Positions 3,482 through 17,929 of a DNA stretch of 64,000 bases are shown here, in pieces. This DNA comes from a virus: positions 32,001 to 96,000 of IMG/VR virus record IMGVR_UViG_3300045988_121434; one strand, 5' to 3'. A model generated the notes under the pieces. The model was not told where the DNA came from, searched no databases, and was given only the letters and a program-made list of their open reading frames with translations. The translations under genes and the position numbers were made by a program. Each line of letters opens with the position of its first letter. The stretch's first letter is position 1.

Positions 3482-3935
3482 AGCAGAAGACCTTAGAATA
3501 GGCGACATTGTGCAGACAAACAAAGACTGCATGTTTCCGAAAGACACATTGTGCATCGTTACCGAAATCCATCCCGACCGACAGTTTAATGACAAAAAGG
3601 GAGTCGTCAGTCTGAAGGCTGTCAACGACGAAGACGACGGTCCCTGGGGGACATGGTGCTGCAACATCGATGGCGTGCCCATCACGCCCGAAATACTTCG
3701 CAATAATGACTTTAAGGAAGAAGTCGAAGGCAAATACTTCACAAGGCCAATCAAAGTCAGAGCAGGCAGTTCCCTTGCCAGATATTTGGCTGTAGAACGA
3801 AAAAAATACGCTTGGGCAATATTCATAAAGTATTACAACGTGACAGGCTATGCACTCTTATGTCATGTAAAGTACGTTCACGAACTACGGCTCGCCCTTA
3901 AAATAGTAAAATTTAATCCGGAAATGAAAGTATAA
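3474..3935 (+). CDS. hypothetical phage protein (153 aa)
   Basis: Track ORF 3432..3935. The ATG at 3474 (MIKAEDLRIGD) is the more plausible start. Confidence 0.5.
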   Translation: MIKAEDLRIGDIVQTNKDCMFPKDTLCIVTEIHPDRQFNDKKGVVSLKAVNDEDDGPWGTWCCNIDGVPITPEILRNNDFKEEVEGKYFTRPIKVRAGSSLARYLAVERKKYAWAIFIKYYNVTGYALLCHVKYVHELRLALKIVKFNPEMKV

Positions 3936-3963
3936 TGTGGATGAATAAGTAAGTAACAAAACA

Positions 3964-4098
3964 ATGACTGACATTAAGATTTCGGTGCATCCGTTTGGCC
4001 ATAAGCTCGAATGGCGAGGATGGGGGGGTAACTTCTCGCCTGCTCTACGAGCCACCGACTACAAATGCCCTCACTGTATAATGATTGAATATGACTAA
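3964..4098 (+). CDS. C5-MTase TRD-like micro-ORF A1 (44 aa)
   Basis: MTDIKISVHPFGHKLEWRGWGGNFSPALRATDYKCPHCIMIEYD. It has an SPALRA..K loop typical of C5-MTase TRDs and contains a G7 tract. Its stop overlaps the next ATG (GAATATGACTAA). Confidence 0.6.
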   Translation: MTDIKISVHPFGHKLEWRGWGGNFSPALRATDYKCPHCIMIEYD

Positions 4099-4225
4099 GC
4101 AACACCCATTCGATGATTTTCATCAGCGCATTCATTGGGACGGCAACTCCATCGGAACCGTTACCCAGCAATGGGGCAATCCTGCGCCGAGGCACGGATG
4201 GCGAATAATGACAGAATATGATTAA
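4091..4225 (+). CDS. C5-MTase TRD-like micro-ORF A2 (44 aa)
   Basis: ...DGNSIGTVTQQWGNPAPRHGWRIMTEYD, ending at the junction GAATATGATTAA. Confidence 0.5.
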   Translation: MTKQHPFDDFHQRIHWDGNSIGTVTQQWGNPAPRHGWRIMTEYD

Positions 4226-4547
4226 CCCTCACACGCCCCGCTACAAGCGCGGCACCATCACCAAGGACGGCAAGCTATACGGACGCTATCCCGACGGTTC
4301 GCTCTACCGCATCTACTCCACCTCTGACCGACCCTTCCTTCAGATTGTTGACCGCAAGGGCGAGACGTTCCTTCGCATACGCCAAGCCACCGAGCAGGGC
4401 TATACCGACTGCCCTTGCCCTGGTGCTGCCGACCTCAGCTATTCCTCCTCGGCTCTAAGGCGCAGCAGGACGGTTGGGGGGGGGGGTAAGCTGGTGAACG
4501 CTCTGACCGCAGCAAGCGGAGGGGCGTGCGTGTTTGTTGAATTATGA
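4218..4547 (+). CDS. C5-MTase TRD-like ORF A3 (109 aa)
   Basis: ...LSYSSSALRRSRTVGGGGKLVNALTAASGGACVFVEL. The GGGG is encoded by a G11 tract (4476-4486). The ORF ends VEL-TGA, overlapping an ATG. Confidence 0.6.
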   Translation: MINPHTPRYKRGTITKDGKLYGRYPDGSLYRIYSTSDRPFLQIVDRKGETFLRIRQATEQGYTDCPCPGAADLSYSSSALRRSRTVGGGGKLVNALTAASGGACVFVEL

Positions 4548-4554
4548 CTTGAAT

Positions 4555-4731
4555 ATGCTTAGAGCAAAGGCAATATCAATAATGGTGAAAAAGGTGGAGC
4601 AGACCATGGTGTTTCAGAACATGCAAGCCAAAGGTCTGATAACGCCTCGCTCGCTTGATGGCGAATGTTTTACTCTTACGTCTGCAATGGGATTAGGGGG
4701 GGCAAACGCCTGTAATAGTAAAGGTATATGA
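4555..4731 (+). CDS. C5-MTase TRD-like micro-ORF A4, C-terminus out of canonical frame at a G7 tract
   Basis: ...GECFTLTSAMGLGG, then ANACNSKGI-stop. With 6 instead of 7 G at 4696-4702 it would read LGGQTPVIVKVYD-stop (4735), ending at the canonical junction TATATGACTAA. The track ORF starts at TTG 4534. Confidence 0.5.
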   Translation: MLRAKAISIMVKKVEQTMVFQNMQAKGLITPRSLDGECFTLTSAMGLGGANACNSKGI

Positions 4732-4859
4732 CTAAATACGACCTCTACCAATATCCTCGTGGCTACAACGACGGAGGTAGATTAGGCACTGACGTTTGCC
4801 CGACCTTGACAATCAATTCGTGGCAGCAAAATGTATTTCTGATTGAAGAATATGAATAA
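4728..4859 (+). CDS. C5-MTase TRD-like micro-ORF A5 (43 aa)
   Basis: MTKYDLYQYPRGYNDGGRLGTDVCPTLTINSWQQNVFLIEEYE. It has a CPTLT loop and ends at the junction GAATATGAATAA. Confidence 0.65.
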   Translation: MTKYDLYQYPRGYNDGGRLGTDVCPTLTINSWQQNVFLIEEYE

Positions 4860-4871
4860 AGCAAAGACAAT

Positions 4872-6200
4872 ATGATCACAAAACTCAATTTCACCGACCG
4901 CACCATCAAGAGCTATGCTATCCGTAAGCTCACGCCAAAGGAGTGTTTCCGCTTGATGGGCGTTCGCGACAACGTAATCGGCACGATGCAGAGCAGCAAT
5001 GCCCAAGCAGCCGAACGTTTGCCCGACTGGAAGGGCAAGGGCAAACCCGAAGACATGGCTATATCTGCCTCACAGCAGTACAAGCAAGCCGGAAACTCAA
5101 TCGTGGTGGACGTGTTGGCCCACATCTACGAGCAACTTTTCTATCCCGCACCGCCCAAGCCCCGCAAGCAGGAACAGCTCACGCTCTTCGCCGACCTTGA
5201 TGACTCGCTGCCCGCCATGCCACCAACAGCCGGAGAACGTGGTAAGGAAAATCTTTTCCTCACCACGTTCTCCGGCTACGACTCGCAGCTCATGGCAGCC
5301 GACGTGCTATGCGAGTGGCATCCCGACTTCCGATGGACATGCGTAGGATGGAGCGACATCGACAAATACGCCTGTCAGATGCACAACCTCGTCTTCCCTC
5401 AGTTTGCCGACTGCGCCCTTGGCGACATCACCAAGATTGACTGGCATGAGGTGAAACGCTCGCTCCATGGGCGCGAGGTTGACATCTTCACCTATTCCTC
5501 GCCTTGCCAGGACATCAGCCAAGCCGGAAAGCAAATGGGACTGAAAGAGGGCAGCGACACACGAAGCGCCCTGCTTTGGCGAGTGGCAGATGCCGTGGAG
5601 GTGTTGCGCCCGAAATATCTCTTGCAGGAGAACGTGGCGGCACTGGTAAGCTCGAAGTTCATGCCCGACTTTCAGAAGTGGCTCGACAAACTCTCCTCGC
5701 TCGGCTATGTGAGCCGTTGGGCGCGACTCAACGCAAAGAACTATGGTGTGCCACAAAACCGCGATCGTGTGTTCTGCATTTCCATGCGCAAAGACGTAGC
5801 CTTCGACTATCAGTTTCCCGAACCCTTCGAGCTGCGCACCCGACTGGAGGACGTGTTGGAAAATGAGGTAGCCGACCGTTATTTCCTAAAAGACGATGCC
5901 GTGAGCAAGTTTCTCAAGGCTAACGACTCCGACAACGCCCTATTCATGCAGTTCGACCTGCCACCGACACACGAGGCAGCGATGTTCCTCAAGACCGTGC
6001 TTCAGATATTCATGGAGCGTCACGACGGATGGGACGAAGGCATTGAGTGGAACGAGAAGGAGCTGAGCTATCGTCGCCCAACCATCGCCCGTCTCTACGA
6101 AAAGTTCAAGGAGAACCCAAAGAAACTGGACGTGGAATATTGGCGCGGCTTTTACAAGATGTTTAAGGAGAATATGGAGAGGAATAAGGATGCGAACTGA
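4872..6200 (+). CDS. circularly permuted DNA (cytosine-5)-methyltransferase catalytic core
   Basis: Motifs appear in the order IX (IRKLTPKECFRLMGV), X (QAGNSIVVDVL), Pro-rich linker, I (LFLTTFSGYDSQ), II (WSDIDKYA), IV (SSPCQDIS), VI (LLQENV), VIII (GVPQNRDRVF). The tail is the usual start of the variable region (LEDVLENEVADRYFL). Confidence 0.9.
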   Translation: MITKLNFTDRTIKSYAIRKLTPKECFRLMGVRDNVIGTMQSSNAQAAERLPDWKGKGKPEDMAISASQQYKQAGNSIVVDVLAHIYEQLFYPAPPKPRKQEQLTLFADLDDSLPAMPPTAGERGKENLFLTTFSGYDSQLMAADVLCEWHPDFRWTCVGWSDIDKYACQMHNLVFPQFADCALGDITKIDWHEVKRSLHGREVDIFTYSSPCQDISQAGKQMGLKEGSDTRSALLWRVADAVEVLRPKYLLQENVAALVSSKFMPDFQKWLDKLSSLGYVSRWARLNAKNYGVPQNRDRVFCISMRKDVAFDYQFPEPFELRTRLEDVLENEVADRYFLKDDAVSKFLKANDSDNALFMQFDLPPTHEAAMFLKTVLQIFMERHDGWDEGIEWNEKELSYRRPTIARLYEKFKENPKKLDVEYWRGFYKMFKENMERNKDAN

Positions 6201-6381
6201 CAACCCACCCGACCGTGTAATCCATATCATAGCTGATATGATTATGGGTGGCAGGTTGCTCACCTGCCCTGCCTCGATGTTCAGTGCAGAACGCTGCAAC
6301 GGAGCCTTTCACGGCATAGCAATAACCATCATGTCGCGCACCGATTGCAGCGACGTGTTCTTTGTAGCAGTAGAATTATGA
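6190..6381 (+). CDS. C5-MTase TRD-like micro-ORF B1 (63 aa)
   Basis: ...NGAFHGIAITIMSRTDCSDVFFVAVEL. The GIAIT loop resembles the HhaI-type loop. The start overlaps the core stop, and the ORF ends VEL-TGA overlapping an ATG. Confidence 0.55.
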   Translation: MRTDNPPDRVIHIIADMIMGGRLLTCPASMFSAERCNGAFHGIAITIMSRTDCSDVFFVAVEL

Positions 6382-6526
6382 AGAAAACCAACCCGTGTCA
6401 CGCAATACAAAATGGGGGGGTACGATTGCGCCTGCAATTACTTCCCACTATTTTAAGGCTGGTGTGCGAGACTTCCTCTTTGCCCTTGCCATACCACATT
6501 GTTGTTTGATAGTAGAATATGAATAA
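6378..6526 (+). CDS. C5-MTase TRD-like micro-ORF B2, frame broken at a G7 tract
   Basis: The ATG frame reads MKKTNPCHAIQNGG. With 8 instead of 7 G at 6414-6420 it continues GTIAPAITSHYFKAGVRDFLFALAIPHCCLIVEYE-stop at the junction GAATATGAATAA. Confidence 0.45.
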
Positions 6527-6671
6527 CAACCCTCGCCCTATCATCCTCGGCTCTTACAGTCCCTCGCAGAACGGCATCATCGTGTCACCACACGGCATAG
6601 CCTTGTGCATAGCCGGGGGAGGTAAGGGTCACGATGTGGATAAACCGAAAATACTGATAGAGTATGACTGA
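6519..6671 (+). CDS. C5-MTase TRD-like micro-ORF B3 (50 aa)
   Basis: MNNNPRPIILGSYSPSQNGIIVSPHGIALCIAGGGKGHDVDKPKILIEYD, ending at the junction GAGTATGACTGA. Confidence 0.65.
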   Translation: MNNNPRPIILGSYSPSQNGIIVSPHGIALCIAGGGKGHDVDKPKILIEYD

Positions 6672-6843
6672 CAAGTATTACATTGGCTGGGTACGCAGCG
6701 GCAAGGACGGCAAGGGCCTCGTAAAGAGCAGACCGCGCAAGCAGATAGCCAATGCCGTGACGACAATGGTCGGAAGAGGTATTGCCGACCCTCGCGACGG
6801 ACTCGGCAACACCACACCGCATATAGTATATGAATTTGAGTAA
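6664..6843 (+). CDS. C5-MTase TRD-like micro-ORF B4 (59 aa)
   Basis: ...RKQIANAVTTMVGRGIADPRDGLGNTTPHIVYEFE. Confidence 0.55.
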   Translation: MTDKYYIGWVRSGKDGKGLVKSRPRKQIANAVTTMVGRGIADPRDGLGNTTPHIVYEFE

Positions 6844-6860
6844 CCCATAAAACAAAAAAA

Positions 6861-7241
6861 ATGGAAAAAGACAAAAACGTAGAGATAGGCCGTGCTCTCG
6901 CCAATTTTGATATGGCCTGTCGCAATTTGGTCAACCTTGTCAACGACCAACTCTTCGAGACCTCCCGCTCACCCTACTGGGTAGCCGACGAGGTAGGAGG
7001 CATCTGCGACTTCGGCGATACCGACTTCCTCACGCCCGAAGAAATGGTGCTCATTCTCGAACACGGCGTCAGCTACGACGACTATGTAGAGTGGCGCGAA
7101 GCCAACATCAAGTATGGCGACACCAAAGGCTACATCAAACTCAAGTCATGGCTCCGCGGATGCCGACACGACCGTGTGGAGGGTGCAAATACCAAGACAA
7201 ACTGCATCGCCCCAGTCCGTGGCCGTGGAGTAATTCGATAA
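6861..7241 (+). CDS. hypothetical protein (126 aa) embedded in the TRD array
   Basis: ORF with a non-TRD-like N-terminal 100 aa. Its 3' end overlaps a cryptic TRD-like frame (7148..7285). Confidence 0.5.
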   Translation: MEKDKNVEIGRALANFDMACRNLVNLVNDQLFETSRSPYWVADEVGGICDFGDTDFLTPEEMVLILEHGVSYDDYVEWREANIKYGDTKGYIKLKSWLRGCRHDRVEGANTKTNCIAPVRGRGVIR

Positions 7242-7266
7242 CAACAGTAACAAAAGACAACCTCCT

Positions 7267-7440
7267 ATGCTACACTTTCGCATAGCAGCCTTTCGAGGCC
7301 GTGACCCCGACAATCCGTCCGACCGCAAGCATCCCTCCTGCGGTCGTTTCCGTCAGCGCATGGAGATAAATGCGTTGGGTACGACCAACACGCTTACGTC
7401 AGTAGGCAAGGATAATATGGCATATATAGAGTATGAATAA
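7267..7440 (+). CDS. C5-MTase TRD-like micro-ORF B5 (57 aa)
   Basis: MLHFRIAAFRGRDPDNPSDRKHPSCGRFRQRMEINALGTTNTLTSVGKDNMAYIEYE. It shows the RGR...NTLTSVxKDN TRD pattern and ends at the junction GAGTATGAATAA. Confidence 0.65.
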   Translation: MLHFRIAAFRGRDPDNPSDRKHPSCGRFRQRMEINALGTTNTLTSVGKDNMAYIEYE

Positions 7441-7582
7441 TCAAACCCCATTCGTGCAACGCCTCTCTCGCCTCTGCCCACGTCGGGGGTACTCCACCGC
7501 CCTGTCCGCACGCTACGACGGATGGGCAGGGCTCTACGACGAGCACGGACAGCACACCATTGTATTGATAGAGTATGAATAA
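7433..7582 (+). CDS. C5-MTase TRD-like micro-ORF B6 (49 aa)
   Basis: ...RGYSTALSARYDGWAGLYDEHGQHTIVLIEYE. The TALSARY loop resembles the Dcm/EcoRII-type TLSARY loop. Confidence 0.6.
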   Translation: MNNQTPFVQRLSRLCPRRGYSTALSARYDGWAGLYDEHGQHTIVLIEYE

Positions 7583-7715
7583 GTACATACAAAATTGTCC
7601 GTCAGGTATCTGTTGCGTTCTGACCTCTCATTACGCAAGAGAAGGATGGGCGAACATAGCAAGCAATACAACATCACAATGCAAAGCACCCACAATATTG
7701 ATAGAGTATGAATAA
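7575..7715 (+). CDS. C5-MTase TRD-like micro-ORF B7 (46 aa)
   Basis: MNKYIQNCPSGICCVLTSHYAREGWANIASNTTSQCKAPTILIEYE. The VLTSHYxxxG loop is similar to that of B2. Confidence 0.55.
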   Translation: MNKYIQNCPSGICCVLTSHYAREGWANIASNTTSQCKAPTILIEYE

Positions 7716-8202
7716 AAATGTAACAAACCCCATAAAAACAACAGAGACAATGAAACCAGAAGAAAACAACCGTATGGAGGCACTTGCCTACATCATAGCC
7801 GACCTAAAGGCAGAGAACATAGAGCTGGTGCAGCGTGTGCATCAGCTTGTGGAGGATTACAACGACGTAGCACGTCAGTTGCGTGGAATGGAGAAGCGTA
7901 AGGACGAAGACCAGTCAAGGCAGACGCTCGGCGAAATGATGCAGATGCGCGACCATTGCGACAAACTGGAGGTTGAAAACAACAATTTGAAGACGTGCTT
8001 GATAGCAGTCAGCTCGTTTCTGCGAGACAAAAATCTGTATATGGCTAATGGCACATTATGTTCTTATGGGTCTGGCAATCCAGAAGTATGTCCTGAGTAC
8101 TGCAAAAAATGTAACTCCTACCTAAGTACTTTAAAGGATGTTGGTGTGGTTTGCAGCAGAAGACTTGCAGAAGCTTCCGTAATTTTTGCGAAGAGTAAAT
8201 GA
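7708..8202 (+). CDS. hypothetical coiled-coil / Cys-rich protein (164 aa) embedded in the TRD array
   Basis: The ORF starts at a canonical array junction ATG. It has a central heptad-like region and C-terminal CxxxC / CxxC pairs. Confidence 0.5.
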   Translation: MNKNVTNPIKTTETMKPEENNRMEALAYIIADLKAENIELVQRVHQLVEDYNDVARQLRGMEKRKDEDQSRQTLGEMMQMRDHCDKLEVENNNLKTCLIAVSSFLRDKNLYMANGTLCSYGSGNPEVCPEYCKKCNSYLSTLKDVGVVCSRRLAEASVIFAKSK

Positions 8203-8360
8203 CACCAACAAAAACCCTCGTAGTCGGCATGATGCAGACGCCACCCTATGACCGCATGTTTGAGCAGAGCCGCCGCGTGTACTCCGCTCAGGGAATATCG
8301 CCCACGCTGCATACACAAGGGGGGGGTGATAGAGAGATTAAGGTATTGGTGGAGCTGTAA
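8199..8360 (+). CDS. C5-MTase TRD-like micro-ORF B8 (53 aa)
   Basis: MTPTKTLVVGMMQTPPYDRMFEQSRRVYSAQGISPTLHTQGGGDREIKVLVEL. It shows the classic RVYSxxGxSPTL..GGG pattern, with GGG encoded in a G8 tract. Confidence 0.7.
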   Translation: MTPTKTLVVGMMQTPPYDRMFEQSRRVYSAQGISPTLHTQGGGDREIKVLVEL

Positions 8361-8476
8361 GAATGTCCGCTCCATATCGCCGACAACACCTATCTTTGCA
8401 CATATCACTGAACGAATGAGACTAACATCGTTTTCATTTGTTTCGTCTGGTGACAAACAAAAACAACATTTCATCT

Positions 8477-8830
8477 ATGATACAACATCAGCATTGGGAA
8501 GACTCCACTCACATACTCATTACCGACGAGCAGCATCATGGCAGCATACAGGTGTTCATCCCCAAGCGCACCGAAGACAAGCCCTTGGATGGCGAGGCTG
8601 ACGCTCTCGTCTATTCGCTGTGGGTGGGCGAACGGCACCGTGGCCGTGGGGTGGCAAAACTCCTGATGGAGACAGCCGAAAGGGAACTGAAGCGCTGCGG
8701 CATAGCGACCGTCGCTATATCGTGGGATGGACGCGACTCTCCCCAATGGGTGTTGCAATGGTATGAAAGGTTGGGCTACGAAGGAAAAGCGTTCGACTAC
8801 CGCTGCTGCACGCTTCTTAAACGGTTGTAG
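8477..8830 (+). CDS. GNAT-family N-acetyltransferase
   Basis: LWVGERHRGRGVAKLLMETAEREL is GNAT motif A. It is a paralogue of the C-terminal half of 1451..2110. The track ORF starts at 8438. Confidence 0.75.
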   Translation: MIQHQHWEDSTHILITDEQHHGSIQVFIPKRTEDKPLDGEADALVYSLWVGERHRGRGVAKLLMETAERELKRCGIATVAISWDGRDSPQWVLQWYERLGYEGKAFDYRCCTLLKRL

Positions 8831-8998: not shown

Positions 8999-10174
8999 AT
9001 GAGCGACTTAAAGATTTTTGCAAAGACCATTGAACCTGAAGCCCAGGAGCAAGTAAGGCAGATGGCAGAGAGCGAGGCTTACCGCGACTGTAAGATTCGC
9101 ATTATGCCCGATTGCCATGCCGGAAAGGAATGCACCGTAGGCACCGTGATTGAGACCCGCGGCAAAGTGGTGCCCAACACCGTGGGCGTTGACATCGGTT
9201 GCGGTATGCTCGTGTGGGATTTAGGCTTTGCCAACATTGATATGGAGATTCTCGACCGTATCATCAACGACAACATTCCAAGCGGATTCAATGTGCATGA
9301 GAAGCGTTTGTCGTCAGAGATGGTTTCCCTTATGCACAATGAAATATGGTGTTTTTTGCCTCCGTGGAAGCAATATTTTGACCTCGACTATGTACTGCGT
9401 TCGCTCGGCACCCTTGGCGGTGGCAGCCACTTTATTGAGGTTGACGTGGACGACGAAGGACGCAAGTATCTTGTAGTACATTCGGGTAGCCGCAATTTAG
9501 GCGTAAAGATATGCCGACATTTTCAGCAGTTGGCATCAAGACAATGCAACAACAGTGAGGAACGTGGACGTATCATTTCCGAACTGAAAGCTCAGGGCAG
9601 ACAGAGCGAGATAAACGATGCGCTGCGCCGGTTGAAACCCGTTTCTAAAGACATGGCCTACATTAGCGGTACCACGCTTGGCGATTACTATGATGCCATG
9701 CGCTTGTGTCAGCATTATGCCGACTTGAACCGTTTTCTTATGGCGCAAACCATAATCAAAGGTCTTGAACTAAAGTCTACAGGTCGTGTGTTCACCACCA
9801 TGCACAACTACATCGACACCTTCGGCATTATCCGCAAGGGAGCTGTGAGCGCAAAGAAGGGCGAGCCTCTGATTATCCCTCTGAACATGCGCGACGGTTC
9901 GCTGCTGTGTACTGGCAAGGGCAACAACGACTGGCTTCAGTCGGCTCCCCACGGCGCAGGCAGACTAATGTCGCGCTCGGCTGCCAAGAAGCAGCTCAGC
10001 ATGGACGAATACCGCCAACAGATGCACGACATCTACTCTACATCGGTATGCGAGGCCACAATCGACGAAGCTCCAATGGCGTATAAGTCGGCAGAGGAAA
10101 TAGAAGCGTTGATAGGCGACACCGTGAACATCGTGAAGCGCATTAAGCCGATATATAACTTTAAGGCGAAGTAA
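8999..10174 (+). CDS. rtcB: RtcB-family RNA 3'-phosphate ligase
   Basis: The 391-aa protein carries the RtcB metal and GMP-site motifs: MPDCHAGKE, GVDIGCGM, GGGSHFIEV, HSGSRNLG, TMHNYI, APHGAGR. Confidence 0.9.
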   Translation: MSDLKIFAKTIEPEAQEQVRQMAESEAYRDCKIRIMPDCHAGKECTVGTVIETRGKVVPNTVGVDIGCGMLVWDLGFANIDMEILDRIINDNIPSGFNVHEKRLSSEMVSLMHNEIWCFLPPWKQYFDLDYVLRSLGTLGGGSHFIEVDVDDEGRKYLVVHSGSRNLGVKICRHFQQLASRQCNNSEERGRIISELKAQGRQSEINDALRRLKPVSKDMAYISGTTLGDYYDAMRLCQHYADLNRFLMAQTIIKGLELKSTGRVFTTMHNYIDTFGIIRKGAVSAKKGEPLIIPLNMRDGSLLCTGKGNNDWLQSAPHGAGRLMSRSAAKKQLSMDEYRQQMHDIYSTSVCEATIDEAPMAYKSAEEIEALIGDTVNIVKRIKPIYNFKAK

Positions 10175-13649: not shown

Positions 13650-14423
13650 TTAAAATAGAGAGAGTTGTGCCTGCTCCAACTTGATGCGCTTGCAAGCCTT
13701 GTTGTAATACTCCTTATTGAGCTCGAAGCCGATGAAATTGCGTTTCTCTTTTATACAAGCAATGGCAGTGGTGCCGCTGCCCATGCAGTTGTCTAATATG
13801 GTGTCACCCTCGTTGGAATAGGTACGGATGAGGTACTGAATAAGAGCGACTGGCTTTTGTGTGGGGTGGAAGGTGTCGGCTGAATGTTCCTTATCGAAGC
13901 AGATAATGCTCTTTGGAAATTTTTCGTCTGATACGATAGTAGGCACTTCTTTATGGTCGCCGTAACACCCCCGCTTCAAACTATGAGAACCATCACCCTT
14001 GTGATGGTTTCGTTTATGTGGCGCACATTTTACCATCTGAGGGTTGTAGATAGGTTGCTTCCGATAGAATACTGCAATATCCTCATGCGAGCGCAGAGGC
14101 ATCTTGTTGACATTCAAAAAGCCCGTTGCTCTGTTTTTGCTCCAAATAAGATTATATTTCCAAAGTTTCGGCTGCGACACCATAAGTTGTGCAGTGAACA
14201 TACCTTGACAGAAAAGAATAATCGCTGCATTGTTTTTTGCTATGCGTAGATATTCTTTCCATAATGACTCAAGCGGAATAATGCTATCCCATTTCCCTCC
14301 TTCACTCTGTTTGTTGAGAACACCATACGGCAAATCGCACACGATGCAATCCACGCTCCCGTCTGGAATCCTTTTCATCCCTTCCAGACAGTCTTCGTTA
14401 TATATCTTATTCAGTTCTACCAT
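13650..14423 (-). CDS. DNA methyltransferase, beta-class (N6-adenine or N4-cytosine)
   Basis: Motif IV (DCIVCDLPYG) precedes the SAM motif I (ILDNCMGSGTTAIAC). Confidence 0.85.
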   Translation of the reverse strand: MVELNKIYNEDCLEGMKRIPDGSVDCIVCDLPYGVLNKQSEGGKWDSIIPLESLWKEYLRIAKNNAAIILFCQGMFTAQLMVSQPKLWKYNLIWSKNRATGFLNVNKMPLRSHEDIAVFYRKQPIYNPQMVKCAPHKRNHHKGDGSHSLKRGCYGDHKEVPTIVSDEKFPKSIICFDKEHSADTFHPTQKPVALIQYLIRTYSNEGDTILDNCMGSGTTAIACIKEKRNFIGFELNKEYYNKACKRIKLEQAQLSLF

Positions 14424-14445
14424 GCTTTGTTATTTTGTAAATCTA

Positions 14446-15054
14446 TCAGTTAAACCATTTTATAGCTGTTTCGCCCTTATACCCTTTCTTCCATACGAAC
14501 CATGCGTATGCCGCTGCGCTGCCAACAATAGCATTGAAATCTCCGTTGGGAGCACATTTCAGTCGTGACGAACTTACCCAAACACGAATGGGGGGAGTAG
14601 AACGGAAGAGAGCGCGTCGCGCCTTGCCTTCAAGGAAAGTCAGTTTCAGGAACATCGCCACCTTCTTTCCTTCGGGAATGATGCTCAGAGCCTTCTCCAC
14701 AAACTGCTGCGCATACTTGTAGGGCGGATTGGTCACGATGTTTCCGTCCCACGCCAAGTTGTCTATTGCGAGAAAGTCGGCCACCTCGCCGTAACCTCTA
14801 TCCACAAGGTCGCGGCTCACCACCTCATACCCCGCCTTTTTCAGCACCTCGCTCATGTGCCCCTCGCCACACGAAGGTTCCAATATCCTGCCTTCAAACC
14901 GCTCCAGCTTGCACAGCCATTCCGTCGCTTTCGGCTCTGTAGCGTAATAATCCTCACGCTGCCTATCCGCATCCGTATGGTTGCTTGCGCCCAACGTCTT
15001 GAACACAGCGGCCGAACCGCCTACCCAGTCCTTTCTTTTTATGTTGTTATTCAT
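14446..15054 (-). CDS. DNA N6-adenine methyltransferase, gamma-class-like (202 aa)
   Basis: Motif I (ILEPSCGEGH) is followed by motif IV (IVTNPPY). Confidence 0.75.
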   Translation of the reverse strand: MNNNIKRKDWVGGSAAVFKTLGASNHTDADRQREDYYATEPKATEWLCKLERFEGRILEPSCGEGHMSEVLKKAGYEVVSRDLVDRGYGEVADFLAIDNLAWDGNIVTNPPYKYAQQFVEKALSIIPEGKKVAMFLKLTFLEGKARRALFRSTPPIRVWVSSSRLKCAPNGDFNAIVGSAAAYAWFVWKKGYKGETAIKWFN

Positions 15055-15095
15055 GTTGTGTAGAGTTTTTGTTGCTTATAATGAAAGTTCCAGTC

Positions 15096-15377
15096 TTAGA
15101 AGAATTTTGCGGGCTGACATTCATCGATTAACTTGCGTGTTTCTTCAGCACAAGCAGCCACGCATTTTTCTACTGCTTCTGTGATGTCTTTGATTTGATC
15201 CTCACGCATATTGTTGTATTTATCACAAGTGTCCTCTATTATTTGGTAGAGAGTCTGTTTTTGTAAAGCCTCCATATAGTCCACATACTCCTTGCACGTC
15301 TTGCGCCCTGGCTCCTTTACCCAATCGATGAAGTCCTTCTTCCTGTCCTTCCATGTCTTGATTTTTATTGTTATCAT
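15096..15377 (-). CDS. hypothetical protein (93 aa)
   Basis: ORF within the minus-strand operon. Confidence 0.45.
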   Translation of the reverse strand: MITIKIKTWKDRKKDFIDWVKEPGRKTCKEYVDYMEALQKQTLYQIIEDTCDKYNNMREDQIKDITEAVEKCVAACAEETRKLIDECQPAKFF

Positions 15378-15383
15378 TGTCGC

Positions 15384-15803
15384 TTACATTTTGAATTGTT
15401 TTTTCAAGAAAGTGTTGCTTTTAATAAGCTCTATCATTTCCTCCTCGGAGTGTATTCCTTCCCAAAATACTTCAGTATGCGACCCACGCCTTTCATCATC
15501 TACGGAGAACGGCACGGCATAGTTGGTATATACAACACCGTGATGTTTTATCAAGTGACGACCTGGATTCTTGTAGATGTTATTGATCCACGTCTCGTTG
15601 TCACATTCAGTCCATATTTTACATTCTTTGTGGGTAAGATTTTTGTCGATACCCATAGGATAGTGACCTGCCTTGCCGTTACTTTTGTTCCGAAATAAAT
15701 GATCTTTGCCATATCGTGATTGTTTTATAATTCGCCAAAGTCCAGTTTCATCTGTTGGAATTTCTCGGCATACCATTGTTTGTATGATTTGCCCGAAATC
15801 CAC
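15384..15803 (-). CDS. hypothetical protein (up to 139 aa; start uncertain)
   Basis: The ORF overlaps the 3' end of the upstream gene by 79 nt if the first ATG is used. Internal ATGs are available. Confidence 0.4.
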   Translation of the reverse strand: MDFGQIIQTMVCREIPTDETGLWRIIKQSRYGKDHLFRNKSNGKAGHYPMGIDKNLTHKECKIWTECDNETWINNIYKNPGRHLIKHHGVVYTNYAVPFSVDDERRGSHTEVFWEGIHSEEEMIELIKSNTFLKKQFKM

Positions 15804-16882
15804 CAGTCGTAGATATTTTCCGCTATTTCGTTTTCTTGCTCCTCCGTCAAGCGGTCAGAAGAGGAGCTGGACGAAAACCCTGGGGCTGCGATATTCCGTA
15901 CACCTCTGTTTTGTCTCCAATGTTCCGGGTCTGGATGTTTGATGTAGCCGCCTGTGTCCTGAGCAATCCTCTGACGTTTCTGAGAGGCATCCAGTCCTTG
16001 CGGATGTTCCACCAAATATATTCTCTTTTGAATACCCCCCCCGTTTCGGATAGCCTTAATAGCCTTTATCCAGTTGCGCTTGATATGCGGATAGCGTTCA
16101 TTCTCGATGCGTTTCTGCTTTGCAGACGACATAGGGCAGCCGATGCAGCCGATGCGATGCCATCCCTCGTCGTAGAGCGAGCAATGCGGAACCTTCACCA
16201 CATCGTTAAGAAACTCCCATACGTCCTTTTCCGTCCAATAAATGATGGGTGAAATAAGCAGACTCTCTTTGCCGTGGATGCAGCTTAATGTCTGTTCTTC
16301 ATCAGCATTAGTGATATTCACGCCTTGCTCCTTGGATTTACGGCGAGCACGTTTAGCCTTCAGCTCCTGACGATATTCGTCCAGACCGTCAAGATTGCCA
16401 CTAAACTTTCGGTTATTTATTTCTACCTCATTTCGTTTGGCTCGGCGTGCGCTCTCTGCCTTGCGGATGCCGATTAGCGTTACCTTGCCAGCACCTGCCG
16501 TTTCCTTATATTCAGCGCAACACCAGCGCACACGCATAGTGGGCAGAATCTGCTTTTCTACGGCAATCTGAAAGATAGATTTGCCAGGCTTTAGCAGTTC
16601 CACCTCGGGATAGTTCTTCTTAACGAAACGTATCACTTCGGGTGGATCAACGCTCGTAAGATTCATGTGACCGCGAAATTTCACCCCCGCCAACTGAGTC
16701 ATGTGGAAAAGAGCTTGAGAATCCTTTCCACCACTAAACGCCAAGTAATATCCATTCTCGGCATCATAGTTGAGGGCTATCTTCTCTGCTTTTTGCAGCA
16801 GCTCCACCGAGTGAAGCATCTTTTTTCGCAGTCCTTCCGAAGCTCGCTCCAATGCTTCGGCAAGCGTAATGTCTATATTCAT
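15725..16882 (-). CDS. PP-loop ATP pyrophosphatase / PAPS-reductase-family protein (IbrA-like, with Cys-rich C-terminal extension)
   Basis: It has the SGGKDS PP-loop (YLAFSGGKDSQ) and later RIGCIGCPM. It contains a G8 tract on the coding strand (plus-strand C8 at 16035-16042). Confidence 0.7.
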   Translation of the reverse strand: MNIDITLAEALERASEGLRKKMLHSVELLQKAEKIALNYDAENGYYLAFSGGKDSQALFHMTQLAGVKFRGHMNLTSVDPPEVIRFVKKNYPEVELLKPGKSIFQIAVEKQILPTMRVRWCCAEYKETAGAGKVTLIGIRKAESARRAKRNEVEINNRKFSGNLDGLDEYRQELKAKRARRKSKEQGVNITNADEEQTLSCIHGKESLLISPIIYWTEKDVWEFLNDVVKVPHCSLYDEGWHRIGCIGCPMSSAKQKRIENERYPHIKRNWIKAIKAIRNGGGIQKRIYLVEHPQGLDASQKRQRIAQDTGGYIKHPDPEHWRQNRGVRNIAAPGFSSSSSSDRLTEEQENEIAENIYDWWISGKSYKQWYAEKFQQMKLDFGEL

Positions 16883-16909
16883 GTCTATTCTTAAAAATAT
16901 TGTTGTTAT

Positions 16910-17929
16910 TTATATTCCGTACTTCTTCAGATACCCCTCACACTTGAATCCCTTTCTTGGCATGAAGTCCTTGAAGTCGGTGGTGCAGAATATCATTCGC
17001 TTGTTGCACCATCGGGCCATATCCTTTTGCCATTCGGGGATGACGTGATTTGGATTTGTAGGGTTGCGGTATGGTTGTGCGTAGGCATACACGGCTCTGC
17101 CTTCATGGTTCTTGCGGAAGCGTTGCAGTCGCTCCCACCAGTAGTGTAGACGGTGGTAACATTCTCGGAAGTCGTTCTTTCCGCCTATCATGGTATAGAG
17201 AAAGTATTCGCCACGGAATCCTGCATCATTGATTAGCTTCATGGCTCGTTCACATTCCGCTATCTGTGCCGTGGTGTCGCAACCGAAGCGGATGCGAGAG
17301 TCTATCCATTTCACTTTGCCTAACAGCTCGGCATATTCGGGAGTAACAAGCCGTGCGTCCATCGCCTGATTGAAGTCGATATGCAGACCGAGGTCGATTA
17401 TCTTCTGAAACTGCTTCTTGGCATAGTCGCCCGCCGCAAGAATGTTGTTGTCCATCAGCACAACGTGCGTTTTGCCCTCGATGGCTATCTCCTCTATATC
17501 CATGTACGGGCGGATGAACCCTTCCTTCTTTGGCACCACACACCAGAAACACTTGTTGGGACAGCCCTCGGTCAGTTTGCCGTAAGCATGGTTCTTTGGC
17601 ACCCATGGGAACAACTCGTATAGCGGTTGCAGTCGGTCTATTTCGTCGGGAAGACGCTTATAGATGTCGTAGCCAGTGCCACCCTTCTCCAGTCGGTCGT
17701 ATGAGAACTGGCGAAAGTCGATGTCTGGCGAAAAGTTAAAAACCTTGCTGGCATACAGTATGTCGTAATGAGCATGACAGAAAAGGTCGATAGGTTGCGC
17801 CCATTCCACTTCATCGCCTTGCATCGTGTGTCAACGGGCAATCTTGCCGAGAGCCACGTTAGGGTATATCGTAGCTCCCCATTTCTTTTTGCCGTGTCGT
17901 CCGTCCACGTCTATGAGTCCTATTTTCAT
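16910..17929 (-). CDS. radical-SAM enzyme interrupted by an in-frame TGA at codon 33
   Basis: CPNKCFWC is a CxxxCxxC radical-SAM cluster motif. The track ORF 16910..17824 starts at an internal Met. The same frame continues upstream as MKIGLIDVDGRHGKKKWGATIYPNVALGKIAR-TGA-HTMQGDEVEW. Confidence 0.65.

Follow-up and report, generated by a model that had tools for sequence, protein, structure and literature searches.

An array of free-standing target-recognition modules around a permuted C5-methyltransferase core: a candidate multispecific phage enzyme in separate parts

The locus and its relatives

The DNA considered here is a 64-kb window of a virus record, IMGVR_UViG_3300045988_121434 (record positions 32,001-96,000); "the window" refers to this whole stretch, and its coordinates start at 1. 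On the + strand, positions 3964-8360 are occupied by an unbroken run of short open reading frames (ORFs) around one long ORF, the predicted catalytic core of a cytosine-5 (C5) DNA methyltransferase. An earlier sequence-only reading of this DNA took each of 13 short ORFs for a single, isolated target-recognition domain (TRD). These micro-ORFs, five upstream and eight downstream of the core and 43-109 codons long, are all found where that reading placed them (Table 1). Its count of 13 stands; however, two ORFs interspersed among them (X10 and X14) are not TRDs, and a truncated fourteenth module had been overlooked. The 13 modules of the window come from about 12 sequence families and share one core. 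This article examines the structure and conservation of these genes and their probable mode of action.

The array was compared with 80 IMG/VR loci chosen via homologues of the core. Such homologues are abundant: among 8,000 candidates scored, at least about 7,950 reach E<=1e-5, and thousands make the core a common gene in human-gut phages. The best 120 share 88-93% identity with it, many of them on contigs of about 90-105 kb. A nucleotide search of GenBank phages with positions 3900-8400 gave no match. The host of the phage is not assignable from the available bins of metagenome-assembled genomes, which point to Prevotella for the closest relatives and to unrelated taxa for others.

Table 1. 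Features of the array and of a second gene group in the window. F numbers are sequence families; matches are given with residues and E value; dN/dS is the ratio of nonsynonymous to synonymous substitution rates.
Feature	Position	Strand	Length	Family	Sequence and state	Match	dN/dS
T01	3964..4098	+	44 aa	F11	..SPALRATDYKCPHCIMIEYD; G7 at 4022-4028, in frame; 6 to 11 G across loci	best match P0267, 337-369 (variable region), 5.5e-12	0.175
T02	4091..4225	+	44 aa	F24	..GTVTQQWG..IMTEYD	P0289, 404-438, 3e-9	0.084
T03 (long)	4218..4547	+	109 aa	F7	..RIRQATEQGY..RRSRTVGGGGKLVNALTAAS..VFVEL; G11 at 4476-4486, in frame	P0299, 481-534, 3e-11	0.106
T04	4555..4735	+		F32	..CFTLTSAMGLGG; out of frame at G7 4696-4702	frame-corrected: P0301, 410-434, 9e-6	
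T05	4728..4859	+	43 aa	F8	..DVCPTLTINSWQQNVFLIEEYE	P0261, 238-284, 4e-9	0.233
Catalytic core	4872..6200	+	442 aa		IX-X, linker, I-VIII, ~90-aa helical C-terminal extension; no TRD	PF00145, 2e-51	0.141
T06	6190..6381	+	63 aa	F0a	..FHGIAITIMSR..FFVAVEL		
T07	6378..6526 (ORF called 6378/6395-6526)	+		F10	MKKTNPCHAIQNGG / TIAPAITSHYF..CLIVEYE; out of frame	family: P0314, 380-423, 8.5e-7	
T08	6519..6671	+	50 aa	F2	..GIALCIAGGGKGHDVDKPKILIEYD; present in 75 loci	P0314, 261-298, 2e-4; H2 methyltransferase, 327-353, 4e-4	0.096
T09	6664..6843	+	59 aa	F3	..QIANAVTT..PHIVYEFE	P0272, 7-55, 6e-7 (N-terminal fused TRD of a permuted enzyme)	
X10, not TRD	6861..7241	+	126 aa		unrelated gene inserted in array		
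14th TRD, remnant	7178..7285	+		F1b	GGCKYQDKLHRPSPWPWSNSITTVTKDNLLCYTFA; N-terminal half replaced by X10	P0345, 360-377, 1e-4	
T11	7267..7440	+	57 aa	F4	..TTNTLTSVGKDNMAYIEYE	P0386, 274-316, 9e-12; 18 matches in total	
T12	7433..7582	+	49 aa	F6	..GYSTALSARYDG..TIVLIEYE; TRD by position, size and terminal motif only; present in 65 loci		0.143
T13	7575..7715	+	46 aa	F17	..CCVLTSHYAREGW..TILIEYE	P0349, 302-330, 2.5e-4	
X14, not TRD	7708..8202	+	164 aa		coiled coil, Cys-rich C-terminus; in same overlapping ORF chain		
T15	8199..8360	+	53 aa	F1a	..RRVYSAQGISPTLHTQGGGDREIKVLVEL; G8 at 8319-8326, in frame	47 matches among 150 representatives	
N6/N4 DNA methylase	13650-14423	-					
PAPS-reductase-like protein	15725-16882	-					
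Weak radical-SAM match	16910-17824	-					

A permuted catalytic core without a TRD

The core aligns with the solved structures of M.HhaI and M.MpeI, which together cover its motifs I-VIII, IX and X. Core residues 17-34 correspond to M.HhaI 271-288 (motif IX), residues 65-86 to M.HhaI 294-315 (motif X), and residues 157-331 to M.HhaI 35-198 (motifs I-VIII). The order in the polypeptide is IX-X within residues 17-86, then I-VIII within residues 130-331, so that motif X precedes motif I. The segment M.HhaI 199-270, its TRD, has no counterpart in the alignment. The catalytic motifs PC, ENV and QxRxR are invariant in alignment A3 (C100, E141-N142-V143, Q183/R185/R187). The earlier claim that this single ORF carries every catalytic C5-methyltransferase motif is borne out by the Pfam match and the intact residues. 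Because of its alignment to the M.HhaI motif blocks, the core is classified as a circularly permuted, catalytically intact C5-methyltransferase that lacks a TRD.

The linker between motifs X and I contains a 24-bp palindrome (5228-5277; 96% complementary, 2-nt loop). Its full form is confined to this genome, and a 12-bp version occurs in 5/77 loci scanned; it resembles a template-switch copy of the LFLTTFSG codons that follow downstream. A role as a regulatory or recombination element was considered and rejected, the palindrome being genome-specific and giving a sub-threshold match to a microRNA model.

The micro-ORFs as target-recognition domains

The missing domain is found in the micro-ORFs. 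In a tblastn search, T15 matches 21 phage records, and every functionally named feature under a match is a DNA methyltransferase; these include the multispecific enzymes of phi3T, SPbeta, H2 and rho11s. The match in the phi3T enzyme covers residues 290-328, between motifs VIII and IX. The three tandem modules of the H2 enzyme all align with T15 (E 3e-10, 2e-6 and 3e-3), and one of them ends in ..PKIAVEY, as the micro-ORFs do.

The same picture emerges from the relatives of the core, which was searched exhaustively against 1.84 billion representatives clustered at 50% identity. The 150 nearest relatives were kept and sorted by the presence and order of the two core parts: 97 have the canonical order and a variable region of 36-494 aa, 21 have the permuted order, and 30 have motifs I-VIII only. 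Clustering of all short + strand ORFs across the loci gave about 22 families with the terminal motif. When the 677 distinct micro-ORFs were compared with the 150 relatives by BLASTP, 15 of the roughly 22 families matched (E 1e-5 to 3e-14), always inside the variable region that separates motif VIII from motif IX. In the window, T01-T05, T08, T09, T11, T13, T15 and the remnant match directly (E 1e-4 to 1e-12), and X10 and X14, which serve as negative controls, have zero matches in the same search. Several giant fused enzymes of canonical order, namely P0378, P0314 (777 aa), P0349 and P0299, hold four to five of these modules in tandem (F4, F7, F1, F11 and F20 in P0378), and where one fused module gives way to the next (..GVMEVI|PLNTD..), the micro-ORFs have their stop/start borders.

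Ten micro-ORFs are in this way assigned by direct homology. For T06 and T07 the assignment holds at family level: T06 is linked by hhalign of family F0a against F0b (75% probability), members of F0b matching the TRD that P0297 and P0366 carry fused at the N-terminus (E 7e-8), and T07 through the matches of F10. T13 gains a second link, since its family F17 aligns to F10 with 96% probability in hhalign. Only T12 has no homology of this kind, so that the view of each micro-ORF as one TRD is backed by homology for all but this one. Outside the array, no TRD-like sequence was found in the 64-kb window. A tblastn search of GenBank phages with T03 gave no match. Taken together, the micro-ORFs are almost certainly the TRD modules of the TRD-less core, a conclusion drawn from homology.

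Not every module is intact. T04 and T07, which had been taken as whole, are out of frame at G7 runs. T04 as found stops at 4731 (..ANACNSKGI), and one extra G would give the QTPVIVKVYD end at 4735; its ancestral start is also broken (ATG ACT TGA at 4544). In T07, the G7 at 6414-6420 splits the ATG at 6378 from the TIAPAITSHY...LIVEYE part, and G8 is needed to join them. Both modules have in-frame orthologues in the loci L030 (6496-6645 for T07) and L007. Accordingly, the terminal strand that had been ascribed to every micro-ORF is present in most of them, as hhhEY(E/D) or VxVEL, but T04 loses its end. The fourteenth module, reduced to its C-terminal half, has full-length orthologues elsewhere, for instance in L002 (7404-7586).

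Conservation of the split state

The ORFs of the array recur in 81 loci, with a median of 12 and a maximum of 20 modules. Individual families are confined to one side of the core, upstream for F7, F8 and F11 and downstream for F2, F4 and F6. Median pairwise dN/dS is 0.08-0.26 in 13 families, compared with 0.14 for the core. T03 has homologues in 202 clusters of a 5.8-billion-protein collection; the 120 listed are all stand-alone proteins of 86-154 aa with no Pfam domain, and homologues of the micro-ORFs are called as stand-alone genes in hundreds of assemblies. The distance to the core is not fixed. In one locus (L057) the modules lie 4 kb downstream of the core, and in another (L066) no modules occur within the 5 kb covered.

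Recurrence in 81 loci, purifying selection and stand-alone homologues in many assemblies place the array beyond chance. The low dN/dS and the stand-alone clusters of T03 identify the split state, on comparative grounds, as a conserved and selected gene structure, not an artefact. The concern that the stops might be assembly errors is met in the same way: the module borders are kept in 81 loci and dN/dS is near that of the core, which upholds the description of the modules as separately terminated. That the array is the wreck of a formerly fused methyltransferase, or that its stops are errors of assembly, is therefore highly improbable, even though the window has two frameshifted modules and one truncated module and homopolymers are error-prone, for the same ORF boundaries return across the 81 loci and hundreds of independent assemblies, dN/dS matches the low value of the core, and every module starts with ATG and has borders that do not fall at homopolymers.

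Poly-G tracts and gene junctions

Five runs of at least seven G occur in the 64-kb window, and all five lie within the array. Gly-Gly pairs start with GGG in 9/13 cases in the TRD ORFs, compared with 3/56 in the other (long) genes, where GGG accounts for 9% of Gly codons. Orthologous G tracts range from 6 to 11 (once 22) across loci, and the reading frame follows the length; in T03 the frame is kept by G8 and G11 and lost with G6, G7 and G9. As a control, a G7 run that lies within the core gene in 11 relatives is constant in length. T03 alleles truncated just after the tract are represented by 179-593 member sequences each, and intact alleles and alleles with interrupted tracts (GNG, RRG) by 379-823.

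Near-identical genomes differ at these same tracts. Over 11,314 nt, L041 and L042 show 0 substitutions but length differences in one poly-C and three TRD poly-G tracts. The comparison of L001 with L002 gives 14 substitutions plus four indels, every indel in a TRD poly-G; between L054 and L055 there are one substitution, one poly-T indel and two indels in TRD poly-G. Two marks of a phase-variable locus are present, an in-frame homopolymer that sets the frame and tract polymorphism among near-identical genomes, and the pattern of the TRD poly-G tracts resembles that of contingency loci. That the tracts switch modules functionally is a tentative reading, to which we give somewhat less than even odds. 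The poly-C tract that differs between L041 and L042 lies downstream of the array (L041 10171). In the window, long C runs likewise occur outside the array (C8 at 16035, C10 at 36461); such C tracts could be further variable tracts or error-prone sites.

The junctions between modules are equally distinctive. The next ATG usually overlaps the preceding stop, as ATGAxTAA or ATGA, with the 8-nt overlap ATGAxTAA at 416/737 junctions. In 63% of the 737 micro-ORF 3' ends, the final 27 nt contain stop codons in each of the other two frames, compared with 8% of control windows in core genes. The codons of the terminal strand are biased: ATA makes up 64% of Ile codons (26% in the core) and TTG and TTA together 75% of Leu codons (24% in the core). 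Because stops fill all three frames, a ribosome in any frame terminates at the restart codon, and the three-frame stops are read as shielding neighbouring genes when a module is frameshifted. Part of the bias would also follow from AT-rich, unstructured start regions. The sequence-only reading was incomplete here, having missed both the candidate poly-G switches and these putative frame-insulating junctions.

Evidence for assembly in trans

Several relatives join modules and core covalently. In the permuted enzymes P0297 and P0366, an F0-type module is fused N-terminally via 8-9 residues and followed by MIAQIN.., the equivalent of the start of the window core (MITKLN..). P0252, also permuted, has two fused N-terminal modules, and P0272 a fused T09-type module. 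In two close relatives (L087 and L088) it is the core that is divided, into an IX-X ORF of 117 aa and an I-VIII ORF of 329-330 aa, with modules on both sides of the split core. Since the core itself can be split in two, non-covalent assembly appears to be a family trait. In L087, a 185-aa gene (4447-5004) lies exactly between the two pieces; it is absent from the split in L088 and looks, from its sequence, like a homing endonuclease. A more distant phage (L083) has four to five free modules upstream of a permuted core that is about 98% identical to P0297, which in turn is 44% identical to the window core. Within an insertion in this core gene lies a TRD-like ORF in another frame (L083 5038-5226; ..AVTLTTAHHYAGN..GVLIEYK).

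The fit of module and core was modelled with AlphaFold2 on a chimera in canonical order, core(113-442)+T15+core(1-100), with 71 relatives in the alignment. The mean predicted local distance difference test score (pLDDT) is 83.9 and the predicted template modelling score (pTM) 0.81; the catalytic part exceeds 94, T15 has values of 71-91, and the C-terminal tail 45-79. In the model, the last strand of T15 is followed by the strand of core residues 11-19, and the template modelling score against M.HhaI, normalised to M.HhaI length, is 0.79-0.82. A T15+core fusion modelled without an alignment reached pLDDT 34. The TRD-core fusions, the two-piece cores, the distant modules of L057 and the confident chimera model all back pairing in trans, and the micro-ORF peptides probably act as specificity subunits in this way.

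Proposed mode of action

The locus is best explained as a multispecific phage C5-methyltransferase in separate parts, its peptides docking on a shared core; we put the probability of this reading at roughly 0.7. The micro-genes would be co-transcribed and then translated by termination-reinitiation at the overlapping stop and start codons, and each TRD peptide would bind the core without a covalent link. The conserved strand at the C-terminus of the peptide (hhhEY[ED] or VxVEL) is predicted to lie beside the N-terminal strand of the core that leads into motif IX, which would complete the small domain. Each peptide would then direct 5-methylcytosine to its own short sequence, and the phage DNA may thereby be shielded from many host Type II restriction enzymes.

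A second layer is less certain. In many modules the Gly-rich loop is encoded by fast-changing poly-G, which may allow single modules to be switched on and off, with the three-frame-stop junctions protecting the translation of neighbouring modules from one that is frameshifted. The array would in this case be a combinatorial library, in which each peptide of 45-60 aa has its own poly-G switch and insulated junctions and shares the core; this we consider possible, though somewhat less likely than not. If true, a phage population would sample many methylation repertoires, balancing escape from Type II enzymes against exposure to methylation-dependent Type IV restriction, and a limiting core would be spared for useful modules. 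The poly-G layer would then amount to epigenetic bet-hedging by the phage in its arms race with restriction.

Several points weigh against the docking of free peptides on a shared core. Translation, complex formation, methylation specificities and switching are all predictions from gene structure and homology. The chimera, being covalent and designed in canonical order, demonstrates compatibility in a model and not assembly in trans. In the lineage of P0297 and L083, a cis-fused TRD stands beside free ones, which makes the access of the free modules to the core questionable. T12 has no detectable homology to fused enzymes (BLASTP against the 150 representatives, hhalign), T06 and T07 are tied to TRDs by their families, and the family profiles of T03 and T08, together with T15 alone, gave chance matches only against PDB sequences. 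Homopolymer error may account in part for the differences in tract length between assemblies. Finally, GGCC, which we take to be the site expected for the phi3T-like module T15, is depleted in this genome (observed/expected 0.37), and such depletion would not be expected if GGCC were reliably protected.

Alternative explanations

One alternative is a cassette reservoir, in which the core uses only a fused or adjacent module and the others are stored and moved in by recombination between junction repeats. Repeats of about 21 nt are indeed present (8 copies, up to 18 identical bases), module order and content vary among genomes, and relatives with one fused TRD plus free ones exist. All of these repeats are direct, however, so that recombination would delete cassettes and not exchange them, and Pfam and PHROG family scans revealed no recombinase gene nearby. 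A stored cassette does not account for modules that each have their own ATG, stop and overlapping coupling and are under purifying selection over their full length, nor for families with fixed places on both sides of a core that has neither a fused TRD nor an expression site. We consider such a reservoir unlikely.

The peptides could also have another role, for instance as regulators or inhibitors of the core or of host methyltransferases, or as independent DNA-binding proteins. They are very small, their role is deduced from sequence, and T12 and some other families are without detectable TRD homology. Yet the terminal strand and the motifs of the recognition loop (TL/TLT, GGG) are kept as in working fused TRDs, the same operon encodes the only partner that is missing exactly this domain, and natural fusions to the core exist. 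These features make a different function improbable.

If ribosomes shifted frame at every junction, the array would be translated as one long, fused multispecific enzyme. Consecutive ORFs do lie in successively shifted frames with very short overlaps, and fused relatives hold the same modules in tandem, but there is little to sustain recoding otherwise. Neither of the two junction types (ATGAxTAA, TTATGA) contains a slippery heptamer, some junctions have spacers of 12-25 nt, unrelated genes lie inside the array, and the core sits in the middle of it. Stops in three frames occur at 63% of junctions, and scans of the window found no known RNA element and no tRNA gene; recoding at every junction is improbable. 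Reassignment of stop codons or a suppressor tRNA was also considered and discarded, given that the window has no tRNA gene and its long ORFs are open in the standard code.

Other genes and sequence statistics of the window

Of the two unrelated genes within the array, X10 has no methyltransferase match among the 150 representatives and belongs to no Pfam or PHROG family. Genes of its type (115-126 aa) occur in L057 and L066 (4657-5004) directly upstream of the core, with a 4-nt overlap with the core start, and there is no TRD near these copies; such a gene may be a further partner of the core or cargo with no relation to it. X14 likewise has no methyltransferase match among the 150 representatives and only sub-threshold matches in Pfam; its homologue in L001 also lies directly 5' of a T15-type module.

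The operon is flanked by genes for two GNAT acetyltransferases and for an RtcB RNA ligase (1451-2110, 8438-8830 and 8999-10174). A second group of genes of DNA-modification type occupies 13650-17824 on the - strand (Table 1). Scans for sigma-70 promoters and terminators gave background levels.

Strong avoidance of restriction sites coexists with the methyltransferase system. CTAG is observed 0 times in 64 kb, where a maximal-order Markov model predicts about 92. Depletion also affects GATC (observed/expected 0.26) and CCGG (0.51), but not GCGC (0.88) or CGCG (0.82). The 6-mers ATGCAT, CAATTG, CATATG, GATATC and GGCGCC are absent or nearly so. These palindrome statistics gave no specificity assignment for the modules.

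Significance and comparison with known systems

The sequence-only reading was aware of no described methyltransferase with stand-alone TRD peptides or with this many TRDs, and the literature searched here likewise contains no published description of free-standing TRD arrays. If action in trans is true, this system would to our knowledge be the first natural C5-methyltransferase with its specificity on free, exchangeable subunits of about 45 aa. It would also have by far the largest specificity set per core, with 13 modules in this array and about 22 families among its relatives. A single core served by dozens of natural plug-in modules would also offer a route to a TRD-to-sequence recognition code, and suggests plug-in programmable cytosine methyltransferases.

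Hypermutable poly-G tracts create phenotypic diversity in Campylobacter phages, where they lie in receptor-binding genes and are not known from methyltransferase specificity modules. In cells, Type I HsdS subunits and phase-variable methyltransferases, as in phasevarions and hsdS shufflons, alter the methylome through repeat or recombination switches (PMC12707154, PMC7672463). By analogy with HsdS, specificity would here come from an exchangeable, separate subunit. Unlike the C5 system of the window, however, those are N6-adenine enzymes of unrelated families, with large S subunits, cellular and paired with nucleases, and their switching acts on one gene instead of on a dozen independent micro-genes.

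A permuted core has precedents in the Type H enzymes (M.BssHII, M.Alw26I, M2.Eco31I, M.Esp3I and M2.BsaI), in which IX-X comes before I-VIII (PMC5944983). The relatives P0297, P0366, P0252 and P0272 have the exact Type H order TRD-IX-X-I-VIII. The window core differs in that the N-terminal TRD is detached and the polypeptide starts 16 residues before motif IX; motifs VIII and IX of this chain have no TRD between them.

Active enzymes can also form from separate chains, as in M.AquI (alpha/beta) and M.EcoHK31I (alpha plus a small beta chain with motif IX) (PMC5944983, PMC2836561). As in these split enzymes, the small chain in the window would complete the small domain, and L087 and L088 add a split of the core like that of M.AquI. 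M.AquI and M.EcoHK31I, however, consist of two chains with one specificity, and their TRD is covalently joined to conserved motifs, whereas the free chain of the window is a TRD alone, cut on both sides and without a conserved motif, and many alternative chains of this kind are encoded for one core.

Close counterparts are the multispecific C5-methyltransferases of Bacillus phages, which are phage-encoded, combine one core with several TRD modules and have an anti-restriction role (PMC12707154). Like the enzymes of SPR, phi3T, rho11s, H2 and SPbeta, the window has several modules (about 40-50 aa in those enzymes) for one core, and T15 shares homology with these modules, including the ..KIAVEY-type end. 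In the Bacillus phage enzymes, two to three modules lie in one polypeptide in canonical order; the window has 13 separate genes (up to about 20 in relatives), a permuted core and many modules with poly-G. Instead of lying in tandem within one polypeptide, each module has its own start and stop in 81 loci. The system would thus combine the workings of the multispecific and the split enzymes, and fits the definition of neither in full.

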